Below the pieces are notes generated by a model. That model was not told the DNA's origin. It did no database searches and saw nothing but the letters and a program-made list of their open reading frames with translations. From NCBI RefSeq assembly GCF_009931435.1, contig NZ_CP043414.1: DNA of 64,000 nucleotides; one strand, given 5' to 3'. Position numbers and translations under genes: made by a program. Below are positions 57,358 through 64,000 of the stretch, piece by piece. This DNA is from Escherichia coli. GTDB taxonomy: Bacteria; Pseudomonadota; Gammaproteobacteria; Enterobacterales; Enterobacteriaceae. Position 1 is the stretch's first letter; the number at the start of each line of letters is the position of its first letter.

Positions 57358-58629
57358 TTCGAGCATTTTGCGGATCTGATCCTGTTGGTGTGTTGTCAGC
57401 GTCAGATCTGTGTAGATCAGCGGTGGTGAAAAGAGCGGTAACGGCGTGGTGTAAGGCGCAATAATCAGTGCCGCGCCGCGTGGAGCACCTCTCTGCAAAA
57501 ATGCTTTTACCGACATATGCTTAATGTTGAGCGGCAGTAACGTTAGTTCACGTAACTGCTGCTCAATCTGCGCTTCACGCTCGCTATCATTCCCGGTCAG
57601 TAGAATAATCTGTTTTTCATGCAGGTCGTTTTCCTGCATTAGCCAGGCACCGAAAATCACCGCGACCAGACCGCTTTCCTCATCAGAAAGATGGACGCTG
57701 TATTCACTTTCAAATCCGGTCAGCGCCGCGCGGGTGGTGCGCACCAGGCGTGGGTACAGTCTGGAGAACTCTTCTGGCAGGGTGTTATCAATACCGATGG
57801 CAAACAAACTGCGATTTAACGCCTGGGCGAGGTGAGTATAAAGCTGATCGCATAACCCCTGTTCATCATAAAAACGAACATTTCCCAGCTCACGAAAATG
57901 GTTTACCAGATGTTTGATAGACTGACGCAATTGTCTATCCCGCTGATGCGCATCCCGAATTGGATCGGGAACTCGCAACATGGAAAAAAGTAATGCCATA
58001 AATAGTGGCTCATCAGGCGGTACAGGCTGAAGCGCCCGACGCTGCCAGTGGCGTCCAATTTCCTGCGCTACCTGAAATTCCAGGCAGGATTCTGCCCAGC
58101 GACGTTGGAGCGGATTAAACTGAGGCGTAATGCCAGCGTGGTGTTGCAGCAAGCAATATTGCAGATACAGACACAGGAAATGAATATCGCGCGATTCAAA
58201 GCGTTTTTGTAGCCGTCGAGAGCAGAGATTCACTAACGCTTGTAGATTGGTATCGTCGTAAAAGTTACGCGAAATTCCGCGCCGCTTTAGTTCACTCTTC
58301 AGAGCAGGTGTGAATTGGCTGGTAATAAATGACGGACACAGACGGAAACCACGTCGTAGCCAATGAAATAAACACAAACGTTGGTTAAGCACTGTGCCTT
58401 CAACCCGATAGCTACCGTCATAACCAGTAGTCAGTGTGAGTTGATGATAGCGCAGGATCTCCCGTCCTGTTTCGCTGATATCAAGACTGGCAATATCATC
58501 ATCCACACCATTAAGCTTGCTGAAGGTTGCCGTGGTGGCGGTCAACCCCGGCTGAAAGAGTGTCAGCAAGATCTGGCAGCGGCGCTGGGGAGCCGAAAGG
58601 ACAGATGGTGAAGCAAGCGTAGGCATCAT
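57349..58629 (-). CDS. csiE: Stationary-phase inducible protein CsiE
   Basis: Start at ATG 58629 (MMPTLASPSVLSAPQRRCQILL, 426 aa); ORF track extends 7 codons upstream. Confidence 0.85.
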   Translation of the reverse strand: MMPTLASPSVLSAPQRRCQILLTLFQPGLTATTATFSKLNGVDDDIASLDISETGREILRYHQLTLTTGYDGSYRVEGTVLNQRLCLFHWLRRGFRLCPSFITSQFTPALKSELKRRGISRNFYDDTNLQALVNLCSRRLQKRFESRDIHFLCLYLQYCLLQHHAGITPQFNPLQRRWAESCLEFQVAQEIGRHWQRRALQPVPPDEPLFMALLFSMLRVPDPIRDAHQRDRQLRQSIKHLVNHFRELGNVRFYDEQGLCDQLYTHLAQALNRSLFAIGIDNTLPEEFSRLYPRLVRTTRAALTGFESEYSVHLSDEESGLVAVIFGAWLMQENDLHEKQIILLTGNDSEREAQIEQQLRELTLLPLNIKHMSVKAFLQRGAPRGAALIIAPYTTPLPLFSPPLIYTDLTLTTHQQDQIRKMLESA

Positions 58630-58819
58630 CTGTAGATCTCCCATAAGCATAATTGATAAGAATAGCTAAAGTTTGCTCAGGGAAATGGCGAAGGGAATGC
58701 TAATCATCAGAAATGTTGGCAAGCGTCACAGAATTTTTCTCATCTTAAACTGTTCTGACCAGTGGATTAGCTCGTCTAAAGGTGGATTTGTGAATGATTA
58801 TCGCGCTAGCGATCATGGG

Positions 58820-59674
58820 TTAGTTCTGCGGATTCAACGCGCTAAGGATAAAATCCACTATTTGTTCGCGATAAACATCACCGTGACGATCGGAAAAAGC
58901 ATCAATGTGTTCGCCGTCAGGGATTAAGATTAAACGTTTTGGCTCTTTTGCCAGATCATACAACTTTTGGCTGTGCTGCCATGGGATAACGTGATCGGCC
59001 TTACCGTGAATGAGTAAAACTGGGATCGGGCTGACGCTGGCGATGTAATTTTCGCCGCTGTAACTCTCATCAAGTAAGTAGCCACTGCCGGGGATCATCT
59101 GGTTGGCAATGGTTGCATAAGAGGCAAATGTGGAGTCGAGGATCACTGCACGTATGCCCTCACGATCCCCCTGACCAACGACATCAAGAATATTCGCCCC
59201 GCCAATACTCTGCCCGAACAGCACCAGTCGTTGTTGGTTTACATCACTGCGATGGCGCACCACATTGATGGCACTTAGCGTATCGTCCAGCAATCCGGCC
59301 TGAGACGGTGTGCCTTTTGATTTACCAAACCCGCGATAATCAAACATAAAAACGTTGAAATTACGCTCGGGTAACCAACTGACCAGCGGCCAGTGGGCGG
59401 ACATATTTCCGGCATTGCCGTGAGCATGAATGATGGTTGCGATGGCGTTGTCAGCGGGGCCTGTCGAAGAAGGGATAAACCAGCCTTGCAGACGAGTACC
59501 GTCCTTAGCTGTAAATTCGACGGATTCCGCCGACCAGGGGTCGGGACCGTAAATTTTGTCGTCGGGATAATAGAAGAAGTTGATGGCAACGCGCGGCACT
59601 AAATAAACGCAGAAGACAACAACAAAGAGAATAAACAGAATTTTGAGAACGCGTGTGTTCACTGGCAGTGCCAT
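58820..59674 (-). CDS. yfhR: Alpha/beta-hydrolase (peptidase S9-like) membrane-anchored protein
   Basis: Start placed at ATG 59674 (MALPVNTRVLKILFILFVVVF, 284 aa; alternative 59701); N-terminal TM anchor, GQSIGG nucleophile elbow. Confidence 0.8.
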   Translation of the reverse strand: MALPVNTRVLKILFILFVVVFCVYLVPRVAINFFYYPDDKIYGPDPWSAESVEFTAKDGTRLQGWFIPSSTGPADNAIATIIHAHGNAGNMSAHWPLVSWLPERNFNVFMFDYRGFGKSKGTPSQAGLLDDTLSAINVVRHRSDVNQQRLVLFGQSIGGANILDVVGQGDREGIRAVILDSTFASYATIANQMIPGSGYLLDESYSGENYIASVSPIPVLLIHGKADHVIPWQHSQKLYDLAKEPKRLILIPDGEHIDAFSDRHGDVYREQIVDFILSALNPQN

Positions 59675-59818
59675 AACCTTTCCTTGCGACTTCTTTATCA
59701 TCCATTAATCGGGGAAAGATGGTGGGAGAGTGACGAAAGAAAGTAAAGCAGAGCGGAAGCATTTCGGAATAGCGCCTGAAAGGCGAGGGCGGGTGAGAGA
59801 AATCACCCGCCAGAGAAA

Positions 59819-60622
59819 TTAACGCTTCAGGGCGTCGCTTAACTCGTCACGCATGTTCGCCAGCATGGCTTTAACAACGCGCGGGTTACCGGCAACGATG
59901 TTACCGGTCAGCATGTAGTTATGACCACCGGTGAAGTCGCTGACGATACCGCCCGCTTCACGAACCAGCAGCTCACCTGCGGCGAAATCCCACGGACGCA
60001 GACCGATTTCAAAGAAACCGTCAACACGACCTGCGGCAACGTAAGCCAGATCCAGCGCCGCAGAACCAGTACGACGGAAGTCTGCACATTCGTTGAACAG
60101 TTTGCCGACGATGTTGATGTAAGTGGTAGCGTACTGTTTTGCTTTGAACGGGAAGCCGGTCGCCAGAATAGTACCGTCGAGATCGCGAGCGGTGCTGCCG
60201 CGCAGACGGTAGCCGTTCAGCTGTGCGCCCTGACCGCGAGTCGCGGTGAACAGTTCGTTACGCATAGGATCATAAACCACAGCAACTTCAGTGCGGCCTT
60301 TGATACGAACGGCAATAGATACCGCGAAGTGCGGCAGGCGTTTGATAAAGTTGGTAGTGCCATCCAGTGGATCGATAACCCATTGAACATCCTGATCGGT
60401 ACCTTCAAGTTCACCGCTTTCTTCGGTGATGATGGTGTGCTGTGGGTAAGATTTACGAATCGTGTCGATAATCACCGCTTCGGCAGCTTTATCTACGTTG
60501 GTCACGAAATCGTTACTGCCTTTCTGGCTCGCTTCTACAGCGTCCGGGGTTTCATAGTTTTTGGCAATTAAATTACCCGCCTTGCGCGCTGCGCGCACGG
60601 CGATGTTCAGCATCGGATGCAT
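59819..60622 (-). CDS. suhB: Inositol monophosphatase family protein SuhB
   Basis: 267 aa; DPLDGTTNF and WDFAAG motifs. Confidence 0.95.
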   Translation of the reverse strand: MHPMLNIAVRAARKAGNLIAKNYETPDAVEASQKGSNDFVTNVDKAAEAVIIDTIRKSYPQHTIITEESGELEGTDQDVQWVIDPLDGTTNFIKRLPHFAVSIAVRIKGRTEVAVVYDPMRNELFTATRGQGAQLNGYRLRGSTARDLDGTILATGFPFKAKQYATTYINIVGKLFNECADFRRTGSAALDLAYVAAGRVDGFFEIGLRPWDFAAGELLVREAGGIVSDFTGGHNYMLTGNIVAGNPRVVKAMLANMRDELSDALKR

Positions 60623-60740
60623 CGGTCTCTCTCACTGGATGTTAAAGAACGGGAAAACGGCGCAGAGTATAGCAGCGAGATCGGCATCTGTCTTCGTTTT
60701 ATGATAAGATGCGTGAATAATCTTTAGATGAAGAAAGACA

Positions 60741-61478
60741 ATGCTGCAAAATATTCGAATTGTGCTGGTGGAGACGTCACACACCGGTAATATGGGTTCT
60801 GTTGCCCGTGCCATGAAAACAATGGGCTTAACCAATCTGTGGCTGGTTAATCCACTAGTGAAACCTGACTCCCAGGCGATTGCTCTGGCAGCAGGGGCCA
60901 GCGATGTGATTGGTAATGCTCACATTGTCGATACACTCGACGAAGCGTTAGCCGGTTGTAGCCTGGTGGTTGGCACCAGTGCACGCTCGCGCACGCTGCC
61001 GTGGCCGATGCTCGACCCGCGCGAATGCGGTTTGAAAAGCGTCGCTGAAGCGGCAAATACGCCGGTGGCACTGGTTTTTGGTCGTGAGCGTGTCGGCTTG
61101 ACCAATGAAGAGTTGCAAAAGTGCCATTATCATGTCGCCATTGCCGCTAACCCGGAATACAGTTCGCTGAACCTGGCGATGGCTGTTCAGGTTATTGCCT
61201 ATGAAGTGCGCATGGCCTGGCTGGCGACTCAGGAGAACAGCGAGCAGGTTGAACATGACGAGACGCCGTATCCGCTGGTCGATGATCTGGAACGTTTTTA
61301 CGGTCATCTTGAACAAACGCTGCTGGCAACCGGTTTTATCCGTGAAAACCATCCGGGGCAGGTGATGAATAAGCTACGTCGTCTGTTTACCCGTGCGCGC
61401 CCGGAAAGCCAGGAGTTGAATATCCTGCGCGGGATTCTGGCTTCTATTGAGCAGCAGAATAAAGGTAATAAGGCCTGA
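60741..61478 (+). CDS. trmJ: tRNA (cytidine/uridine-2'-O)-methyltransferase
   Basis: 245 aa; SpoU/TrmH SPOUT fold; divergent from suhB. Confidence 0.92.
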
Positions 61479-61507
61479 GGGCTAAGCCAGATAAGTGCAC
61501 GGACGGT

Positions 61508-61545
61508 CCCCTCGCCCCTTCGGGGAGAGGGTTAGGGTGAGGGGA
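61508..61545. repeat. GC-rich palindromic intergenic repeat (Box C-like)
   Basis: CCCTCGCCCCTTCGGGGAGAGGGTTAGGGTGAGGGGAA; resembles the E. coli Box C dispersed repeat as recalled; 30 bp after trmJ stop. Confidence 0.45.
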
Positions 61546-61659
61546 ACAGGCCAGCGCTAATGCGAATAATTGCCCTCAACCCGCTCATGGTCTGGAAGGA
61601 CAACAGGTACAAACGCCACGATAAAAAAATGGCACTGAAGGTTAAATACCCGACTAAAT

Positions 61660-61778
61660 CAGTCAAGTAAATAGTTGACCAATTTACTCGGGAATGTCAG
61701 ACTTGACCCTGCTATGCAATACCCCCACTTTTACAATAAAAAACCCCGGGCAGGGGCGAGTTTGAGGTGAAGTAAGAC
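61660..61778 (+). promoter_or_regulatory. iscR promoter/operator region (expected IscR autoregulatory sites)
   Basis: AT-rich region with TTGACC hexamers (61675-61680, 61704-61709) and TACAAT (61732-61737) upstream of iscR ATG; individual IscR site boundaries not resolved. Confidence 0.45.
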
Positions 61779-62267
61779 ATGAGACTGACATCTAAAGGGC
61801 GCTATGCCGTGACCGCAATGCTTGACGTTGCGCTCAACTCTGAAGCGGGCCCGGTACCGTTGGCTGATATTTCCGAACGTCAGGGAATTTCCCTTTCTTA
61901 TCTGGAACAACTGTTTTCCCGTCTGCGTAAAAATGGTCTGGTTTCCAGCGTACGCGGGCCAGGCGGTGGTTATTTGTTAGGCAAAGATGCCAGCAGCATC
62001 GCCGTTGGCGAAGTAATTAGCGCCGTTGATGAATCTGTAGATGCTACCCGTTGTCAGGGTAAAGGCGGCTGCCAGGGGGGCGATAAATGCCTGACCCACG
62101 CGCTGTGGCGTGATTTGAGCGACCGTCTCACCGGTTTTCTCAACAACATTACTTTAGGCGAACTGGTTAATAACCAGGAAGTGCTGGATGTATCTGGTCG
62201 TCAGCATACTCACGACGCGCCACGCACCCGCACACAAGACGCGATCGACGTTAAGTTACGCGCTTAA
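61779..62267 (+). CDS. iscR: Fe-S cluster regulator IscR (Rrf2 family)
   Basis: 162 aa; [19 protein letters not shown] wHTH; cluster ligands in [13 protein letters not shown]. Confidence 0.96.
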
Positions 62268-62271
62268 TTTA

Positions 62272-62400
62272 ACCGTCCTGTTTCGTGTTGCATCTGCGTT
62301 GACTGCACATACTCACTCCGGTCACTTACTTATGTAAGCTCCCGGAGATTCGTAAGTTTGTCAACTTGCTGAAACCCGAAACAGTTAGGTTAAAGATAAC
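62272..62400. repeat. ERIC-like imperfect palindrome in the iscR-iscS spacer
   Basis: Core CACTCCGGTCACTTACTTATGTAAGCTCCCGGAGATTC aligns with the ERIC central region and with the reverse complement of the element at 21447-21575; flanking arms partly complementary. Confidence 0.6.
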
Positions 62401-62507
62401 AAGATATTAGAATCAGGCCGGGGCGTATCGCGCTCCGTAAACACGGTCGTACATCCAGCCGGTAGCCTGGTTCCTTGCATTGAGTGATGTACGGAGTTTA
62501 TAGAGCA

Positions 62508-63722
62508 ATGAAATTACCGATTTATCTCGACTACTCCGCAACCACGCCGGTGGACCCGCGTGTTGCCGAGAAAATGATGCAGTTTATGACGATGGACGGA
62601 ACCTTTGGTAACCCGGCCTCCCGTTCTCACCGTTTCGGCTGGCAGGCTGAAGAAGCGGTAGATATCGCTCGTAATCAGATTGCCGATCTGGTTGGCGCTG
62701 ATCCGCGTGAAATCGTCTTTACCTCTGGTGCTACCGAATCTGACAACCTGGCGATCAAAGGTGCTGCTAACTTTTATCAGAAAAAAGGCAAGCACATCAT
62801 CACCAGCAAAACCGAACACAAAGCGGTACTGGATACCTGCCGTCAGCTGGAGCGCGAAGGTTTTGAAGTCACTTACCTGGCACCGCAGCGTAACGGTATT
62901 ATCGACCTGAAAGAACTCGAAGCAGCGATGCGTGACGACACCATCCTTGTTTCCATCATGCACGTAAATAACGAAATCGGCGTGGTGCAGGATATCGCGG
63001 CTATCGGTGAAATGTGCCGTGCTCGTGGCATTATCTATCACGTTGATGCAACCCAGAGCGTGGGCAAACTGCCTATCGACCTGAGCCAGTTGAAAGTTGA
63101 CCTGATGTCTTTCTCCGGTCACAAAATCTACGGCCCGAAAGGTATCGGTGCGCTGTATGTGCGTCGTAAACCGCGCGTACGTATCGAAGCACAAATGCAC
63201 GGCGGCGGTCACGAGCGCGGTATGCGTTCCGGTACTCTGCCTGTTCACCAGATCGTCGGGATGGGCGAAGCCTATCGCATCGCAAAAGAAGAGATGGCGA
63301 CCGAGATGGAACGCCTGCGCGGCCTGCGTAACCGTCTGTGGAACGGCATCAAAGATATCGAAGAAGTTTACCTGAACGGTGACCTGGAACACGGTGCGCC
63401 GAACATTCTCAACGTCAGCTTTAACTACGTTGAAGGTGAGTCGCTGATTATGGCGCTGAAAGACCTTGCGGTTTCTTCCGGTTCTGCCTGTACGTCAGCA
63501 AGCCTCGAACCGTCCTACGTGCTGCGCGCGCTGGGGCTGAACGACGAGCTGGCACATAGCTCTATCCGTTTCTCTTTAGGTCGTTTTACTACTGAAGAAG
63601 AGATCGACTACACCATCGAGTTAGTTCGTAAATCCATCGGTCGTCTGCGTGACCTTTCTCCGCTGTGGGAAATGTACAAGCAGGGCGTGGATCTGAACAG
63701 CATCGAATGGGCACATCATTAA
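62508..63722 (+). CDS. iscS: Cysteine desulfurase IscS
   Basis: Start at ATG 62508 ([19 protein letters not shown], 404 aa); PLP-lysine [12 protein letters not shown], active-site loop SSGSACTS. Confidence 0.96.
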
Positions 63723-63750
63723 TCGGTATCGGAATCAGGAGAATTTATAA

Positions 63751-64000
63751 TGGCTTACAGCGAAAAAGTTATCGATCATTACGAGAATCCGCGTAACGTG
63801 GGTTCCTTCGACAACAACGACGAGAACGTGGGCAGTGGCATGGTGGGTGCACCGGCCTGTGGCGACGTGATGAAGTTGCAGATTAAAGTCAACGATGAAG
63901 GTATCATTGAAGACGCGCGTTTTAAAACTTACGGCTGCGGTTCCGCTATCGCTTCCAGCTCCCTGGTCACCGAATGGGTGAAAGGGAAGTCTCTCGACGA
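63751..64000 (+). CDS. iscU: Fe-S cluster scaffold protein IscU (partial, continues beyond window end)
   Basis: ATG 63751: MAYSEKVIDHYENPRNVGSF ... GAPACGDVMKLQIKV ... YGCGSAIASS; truncated by window end. Confidence 0.93.

Follow-up and report, generated by a model that had tools for sequence, protein, structure and literature searches.

Organization of the trmJ-iscR region

The stretch of Escherichia coli DNA analysed here, 64,000 nucleotides long and referred to as the window, presents the gene order suhB (- strand), trmJ (+), a 300-bp spacer, iscR (+) and iscS. The genes and the control region that frame this spacer are the following:

60741-61478, + strand: trmJ, 245 aa, C-terminus ...KGNKA* (ORF list, RefSeq annotation of matching records and allele alignment)
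61599-61778, + strand: iscR upstream region, IscR-operator-like palindromes and 5' leader (invariant columns of the six-sequence alignment)
61779-62267, + strand: iscR (ORF list and RefSeq annotation of matching records)

The six aligned sequences (the window plus five E. coli genomes) do not differ at any position between 61599 and the iscR start codon, irrespective of the repeat located upstream, and from about 61636 on this block is also conserved in 25 other Enterobacterales. Neither a + strand terminator nor a consensus promoter was returned for 61300-61900 by the terminator and promoter scans, and an Rfam scan of 58000-64000 (E <= 1) yielded no family in the trmJ-iscR spacer, its sole match being the iscRS element downstream of iscR.

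With respect to that downstream spacer, the Rfam family RF01517, 'iscR stability element', matches 62397-62506 with 118 bits. The same iscR-iscS spacer (62290-62506) contains CTCACTCCGGTCACTTACTTATGTAAGCTCCCGGAGATTCG, which we take to resemble the centre of an ERIC/IRU repeat, and on account of this ERIC/IRU-like sequence on the iscS side both spacers flanking iscR appear to hold dispersed repeats. Within the iscR 5' leader there is in addition a palindrome at 61743-61757, CCCCGGGCAGGGG, which is preceded by an A-run and is called by the scan as a terminator-like site on the - strand. Its CCCC/GGGG stem recurs with another loop in Klebsiella and Buttiauxella, among others, and the palindrome might act as a hairpin in the leader or halt antisense transcription.

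A GC-rich three-block module downstream of trmJ

The spacer contains a GC-rich module, CCCTCGCCCCTTCGGGGAGAGGGTTAGGGTGAGGGG, of 36 nt at 61509-61544 on the + strand. A previous reading of this DNA, made from the sequence only, had drawn attention to a 38-mer at 61508-61545; that string is present exactly as given, while the size and the ends of the module required a trivial correction, as each end lies one base further in. The sharp compositional contrast with AT-rich promoter DNA that the same reading described is real, the GC fraction being 0.725 at 61500-61539 versus 0.33-0.45 at 61620-61720. The 36-mer occurs once in the 64-kb window, even when 3 mismatches are allowed (0 matches expected from 100 dinucleotide-preserving shuffles), and searches of the window with the 36-mer, its G-rich 19-mer and the B-type 21-mer at up to 3 mismatches disclosed no further copies. 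The module is made up of three 10-nt blocks, one C-rich and two G-rich, separated by the loops TTC and TTA:

61509-61518, + strand: block 1, CCCTCGCCCC, pyrimidine strand of the hairpin (sequence and DNA fold)
61519-61521: loop 1, TTC, between blocks 1 and 2
61522-61531, + strand: block 2, GGGGAGAGGG, pairs with block 1 (DNA fold)
61532-61534: loop 2, TTA, between blocks 2 and 3
61535-61544, + strand: block 3, GGGTGAGGGG, mirrors block 2 and could serve as the third strand in a purine-motif triplex

Blocks 1 and 2 form a hairpin of 9 Watson-Crick pairs and one G.A mismatch, for which the DNA fold gives -8.6 kcal/mol. When block 3 is read 3' to 5' against block 2 (register set by hand), the resulting triplets are G*G, A*A and T*A. 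The stretch 61509-61544 has the layout of the BoxC/PIT/TMECO family, that is, of a class II purine-motif intrastrand triplex with 3-nt loops, the layout being defined as a pyrimidine block, a complementary purine block and a mirrored purine block of 9-10 nt each with loops of 3-5 nt. Blocks 2 and 3 together (61522-61544) also contain a predicted canonical G-quadruplex motif, GGGG-AGA-GGG-TTA-GGG-TGA-GGGG, under the usual definition of four runs of at least three G with loops of 1-7 nt. The hairpin is followed by GGGGAACAGGCC, which has no T-run; an intrinsic terminator is recognized by a GC stem and then a T/U run, and here the stem leads into TTAGGG.../GGGGAACAGG. A larger structured RNA was also considered and was dropped, as RNA and DNA folds of the wider region were no better beyond the hairpin than those of shuffled sequences (z -0.4 to -1.0).

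Identity of the module as a BoxC (PIT, TMECO) element

By its sequence, the GC-rich module is a type A BoxC (PIT, TMECO) element in which a single triplet is mismatched. It is identical at 35 of 36 positions to the K-12 TMECO copies 7, 11 and 15, the sole difference falling in loop 1, and it has the features of the 'type A mm' class as listed in Table 1 of PMC4666352, namely a TTA loop 2 and one G.A mismatch. That table includes 23 K-12 copies, among which 'type A mm' is the commonest class. The family has been named several times, as BoxC at first, then as PIT element (Hoyne et al. 2000) and subsequently as TMECO (Holder et al. 2015, PMC4666352); the family references given in PMC4666352 are Bergler 1992, Bachellier 1999, Hoyne 2000 and 2002, and Holder 2015. 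K-12 copy 9 adjoins fabI (envM), the site of the original BoxC description. The present locus has likewise been recorded before: Table S8 of PMC4666352 lists the exact 36-mer in O157:H7 Sakai at 3383056-3383021, which falls between iscR (end 3382921) and trmJ (start 3383222), so that the trmJ-iscR BoxC locus was already catalogued.

The dispersal of the family was assessed by BLAST with a 136-nt query (61470-61605) against 5,426 complete E. coli genomes, in which it was found at a median of 17 places per genome, with a maximum of 30 and with 19 in K-12 strains; only 43 of 83,340 places were plasmid-borne. All family copies that were fetched lie between genes, and the window copy touches only the region of the trmJ stop codon, through its allele-specific flank. 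The family, which is found in E. coli and its relatives, is dispersed and strictly intergenic, and the suggestion of the sequence-only reading that the module was Box C-like and belonged to a dispersed intergenic repeat of E. coli is borne out.

Full extent of the element: remnant of an inverted composite

The sequence related to this family extends well beyond the 36-mer, and its parts are as follows:

61489-61599, + strand: family-related sequence of about 111 nt, consisting of left flank, A module, internal spacer and degenerate B arm
61495-61549, + strand: BoxC core unit of about 55 nt, GTGCACGGACGGT followed by the 36-mer and AACAG (alignment with 12 other A-type copies)
61545-61572, + strand: internal spacer, AACAGGCCAGCGCTAATGCGAATAATTG, which aligns with the spacers of the gcvP-ygfF, fepB-entC, alx-sstT and recA-recX composites
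61573-61599, + strand: degenerate inverted B arm (composite alignment and right-half profile)

In the aligned K-12 copies, A-type elements share a left-hand stretch of about 13 nt (GTGCACGGACGGT) and a right-hand AACAG, and the window agrees with the consensus of the 12 other A-type copies at 49 of 53 conserved columns. The resulting core of about 55 nt is in line with the 56 bp that PMC2267715 cites as the published BoxC length. BLAST alignments with the recA-recX and gcvP-ygfF copies span query positions 20/24-114/117, which correspond to 61489/61493-61583/61586. These copies are composites, in which about 27 nt of spacer separate an A module from a B module in inverted orientation; such composites were found at gcvP-ygfF, fepB-entC and alx-sstT in K-12 and at recA-recX in another strain, and the 'palindromic' A+B arrangement had been reported earlier by Holder and Hoyne. 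A profile of the right half of three K-12 composites aligns at 61544-61599 with E = 4e-9 over positions 1-57 of 85. Of the B arm, the outer block CCCTCAACCC (61573-61582), with one mismatch, and the loop CTGGAAGG (61592-61599) persist, but the middle block has been destroyed and there is no last block. As judged from these alignments, the window module is the left arm, still intact, of an A+B inverted pair that has decayed. None of the three A-module blocks shows any decay, whereas the B arm does, an asymmetry that could reflect selection on the A module and could equally well result from the removal of a long palindrome.

Two allele classes in the trmJ-iscR spacer

Alignment of six alleles (the window and five E. 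coli genomes), together with allele counts and a SNP profile, delimits the segment in which BoxC and REP/BIME alleles differ:

61476-61598: allele-specific segment of 123 nt, nearly all of it taken up by BoxC-related sequence

This segment starts at the trmJ stop codon TGA (61476-61478) and ends at GACAACAGG. Since the stop codon is its first triplet, TrmJ terminates in ...KGNKA* (245 aa) here and in ...KGNKAE* (246 aa) in BIME strains. Just to the left of the segment, a T at 61469 is linked to the BoxC allele. In BIME alleles the segment is replaced by about 92, 93, 183 or 274 nt containing 1-3 REP/BIME units, which gives spacers of 269/270 bp with one unit, 360 bp with two and 451 bp with three, as compared with 300 bp for the BoxC allele. 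K-12 has 451 bp, and the sequence-only reading was right that the spacer is shorter here than in K-12, and right to suggest that it may be strain-variable, given the observed lengths of 269, 270, 300, 360 and 451 bp. Both findings, that the motif recurs elsewhere in the genome and that the spacer differs from strain to strain, agree with that reading. The frequencies of the two classes in the 5,426 complete E. coli genomes were:

BoxC allele: 1,452 genomes (26.8%)
REP/BIME allele: 3,928 genomes (72.4%)
Neither allele at >= 80% coverage: 46 genomes (0.8%, by difference)

The spacer in other Enterobacterales

Loci outside Escherichia were located with a 24-mer of iscR operator sequence that has an exact match in the window and in all E. 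coli alleles studied, and the sample comprised 25 non-Escherichia Enterobacterales loci from genera other than Escherichia, Shigella, Salmonella and Citrobacter. The trmJ-iscR spacers of these loci measure 104-251 bp. A bare spacer of about 130 bp without any repeat is found in Buttiauxella, in some Pantoea loci and in one Trabulsiella strain, and REP-like palindromes are found in another Trabulsiella strain and in an Enterobacter strain. Direct reading of the spacers of Klebsiella oxytoca and Klebsiella michiganensis revealed a B-type-like BoxC module in the same position and orientation as in E. coli, followed by CAGGCCGCGCTGAAGTGAAA, the equivalent place in the window being AACAGGCCAGCGCTAATGCGAATAA; Klebsiella spallanzanii and Klebsiella grimontii have a decayed BoxC-like module (K. 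oxytoca complex loci L018, L025, L026 and L028). The shared E. coli segment beginning with GACAACAGG may be one more relic of the B arm or of the Klebsiella-type module, the similarity being about 50%, and the BoxC copies of Klebsiella and Escherichia may be orthologous or may stem from independent occupation of the site. The occurrence of bare, REP-like and BoxC-like spacers across genera indicates that repeats repeatedly occupy the trmJ 3' flank.

The two Trabulsiella loci come from Trabulsiella odontotermitis (L019 and L027), one having a spacer of 232 bp with REP-like palindromes and the other a repeat-free spacer of 129 bp, which is a presence/absence polymorphism of the same kind as that of E. 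coli.

Probable origin and transfer of the BoxC allele

The genomes nearest to the window (99.6% over 6 kb) carry the BIME allele. Compared with the closest of them, RMDEC465, the flanks of the segment differ by 0-2 SNPs per 250 nt, and up to 61415 the window sides with RMDEC465 at all sites that distinguish it from the BoxC-allele strain E2865. Beyond 61415 the window instead has the T at 61469 that goes with BoxC, and then the entire BoxC segment, within which it differs from E2865 at 3 sites. No identical copy of the segment was found among the 5,426 complete E. coli genomes (best match 98.5%), and the same allele occurs in three NCBI draft assemblies with 1-2 SNPs in 3.7 kb. A divergence of about 2% between the BoxC alleles of different lineages indicates that the allele is old, and the position of the linked SNP at 61469, outside the segment, fits a transfer by homologous recombination. 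From these patterns we infer that homologous recombination in one of the two lineages probably swapped the allele as a short block; a fresh insertion seems not to be involved.

In the iscR coding region, four substitutions within 90 nt (61958, 61974, 62015 and 62045) separate the window both from its closest relative and from the BoxC-allele strain. By codon position they look synonymous, and they may belong to the right-hand portion of a recombination tract acquired from a donor that is not in the sample.

Published structural and functional tests of the family

It has been reported that PIT/BoxC elements show no promoter or terminator activity and leave RNA polymerase unaffected (Hoyne & Maher 2002, as summarised in PMC4666352), and the same summary states that PIT elements stop DNA polymerase only in vitro. 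Oligonucleotides of the family, covering the types A, A mm, B and B mm, form a stable triplex in vitro as demonstrated by CD and NMR, they form a duplex if their complement is available, and DMS footprinting in vivo did not detect triplex protection (PMC4666352). Loop 1 is the only part in which the window copy departs from the A mm type that was tested. TMECO loci have furthermore been described as more variable in sequence than control intergenic regions (PMC4666352), and the trmJ-iscR dimorphism is a typical example of this variability. On the other hand, Kaplan et al. 2016 (PMC5100583) favour a G4-to-hairpin switch, with an ion-dependent transition observed by CD in vitro, and they report for K-12 an association of the motif class with the GO term iron-sulfur cluster binding, a statistic on about 20 copies. 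This association is suggestive in that it would fit a role near iscR, yet the aligned strains that do not have the element keep the same promoter block. A literature search for BoxC/PIT studies later than 2016 found nothing relevant.

Possible roles of the element at the trmJ-iscR locus

Taken together, the BoxC copy is very probably a neutral or selfish structure-forming repeat that has no dedicated job at iscR and has been moved by homologous recombination. When single-stranded, its G-rich strand could adopt a hairpin, a G-quadruplex or an intrastrand purine-motif triplex, and the most that the element would do is to furnish the 3' end of trmJ with a GC hairpin and to increase local instability. 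The trmJ 3' flank would be a site taken by repeats over and over, a recurrent occupation from which the two E. coli allele classes would follow, with a BoxC remnant in about 27% of the genomes and 1-3 REP/BIME units in about 72%. The allele itself would travel between lineages as a short homologous-recombination block and would not represent a new insertion. The element might modestly influence how stable the trmJ mRNA is or how much transcription reads through into iscR. The proposal of the sequence-only reading, that of a terminator or insulator in which the hairpin stops transcription of trmJ and protects the iscR promoter against read-through, has in its favour that the stem is GC-rich and lies 30 nt past the trmJ stop codon, and that the REP/BIME units of the alternative allele are also 3'-end structures. 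It is nevertheless very unlikely, given that no T-run follows the stem, that the scan recovered no + strand site in the spacer, that the stem amounts to 9 bp with a mismatch and -8.6 kcal/mol as DNA, and that PIT/BoxC was inactive as terminator or promoter in the tests of Hoyne & Maher 2002 as related in PMC4666352; this part of the sequence-only reading is not upheld. Very unlikely indeed is a switch between G-quadruplex, hairpin and duplex that tunes iscR, the Fe-S regulator, in the strains carrying the element. The four G-tracts are identical to those of the HPG1 motif, and both the ion-dependent G4-to-hairpin transition in vitro and the iron-sulfur GO association (PMC5100583) speak for such a switch; NMR on family oligonucleotides, however, points to a triplex and not to a G4, and the duplex prevails once the complement is present, with no DMS protection in vivo (PMC4666352). 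Moreover, the distances between TMECO elements and ORFs are inconsistent, the present element is separated from the conserved operator block downstream by about 90 nt or more and from the core promoter by no fewer than 130 nt, and it is missing in 72% of E. coli, while the promoter block is identical in the aligned sequences.

Two further readings compete with that of a neutral or selfish repeat. One of them holds that a non-autonomous, MITE-like element with the A and B arms as terminal repeats was recently inserted and displaced a BIME in the trmJ 3' flank. The inverted arms of composites are indeed similar for about 14 nt past the triplex blocks, and the family has many dispersed copies whose presence or absence differs by strain; but no target-site duplication was visible on simple inspection of the junctions, no transposase of the family is known, and there is no link to transposons, phages or plasmids (the 43 plasmid-borne places out of 83,340 noted above). 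The allele, with about 2% divergence between lineages, is old, its B arm has decayed, and the linked SNP at 61469 outside the segment fits homologous recombination, all of which makes a recent insertion extremely unlikely. The other reading is that of a maintained two-allele site, in which BoxC would alter trmJ read-through or PiscR supercoiling and give roughly a quarter of the strains their own set-point of Fe-S homeostasis. Although we regard this as exceedingly improbable, it would, if true, turn the BoxC-like modules of the Klebsiella oxytoca complex into a case of long-term retention and not of chance re-occupation.

The element family, its structural models, the lack of promoter and terminator activity, its instability and the Sakai locus are all already in the literature. 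What is added locally comprises the two allele classes among 5,426 genomes, the stop codon inside the allele-specific segment, the remnant of an inverted pair and the apparent short-tract recombination. These data may be of use in the annotation of intergenic variation upstream of iscR, with the caution that this variation ends before the promoter block. Overall their importance is small, as a known repeat is involved at a known locus; the feature is real and non-random, and was correctly spotted by the sequence-only reading.

Comparison with known repeats and terminators

The element resembles rho-independent terminators in being a GC-rich stem-loop soon after a stop codon and differs from them in that there is no U-tract here and that the BoxC family was tested without terminator activity. 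With REP/BIME elements it shares the niche in the 3' flank of a gene, GC-rich imperfect palindromes and a copy number that varies by strain, although the sequences are unrelated: the REP consensus (GCCTGATGCGACGC...GCGTCTTATCAGGCCTAC, with Y/Z palindromes in alternating orientation) is absent from the window segment, and REP pairs occur only in the other alleles. REPs have a dedicated transposase family, the RAYTs, and we know of no RAYT-like enzyme for BoxC. K-12 itself has no BoxC copy at trmJ-iscR and carries three BIME units instead.

The HPG1 class of predicted G-quadruplex motifs (Kaplan et al. 2016, PMC5100583) is represented in the window by a 21-mer without any difference, GGGAGAGGGTTAGGGTGAGGG, with the C-rich block complementary to it just before. 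It is the same element as BoxC under another name and with another structural model, and its K-12 list cannot include the locus of the window. The closest correspondence is with BoxC/PIT/TMECO, with which the window shares the three-block architecture, the conserved flanks, the intergenic site and the A+B inverted pair known from five K-12 loci. Nothing essential differs between the two; the B arm of the window copy is degenerate and truncated in its loop.
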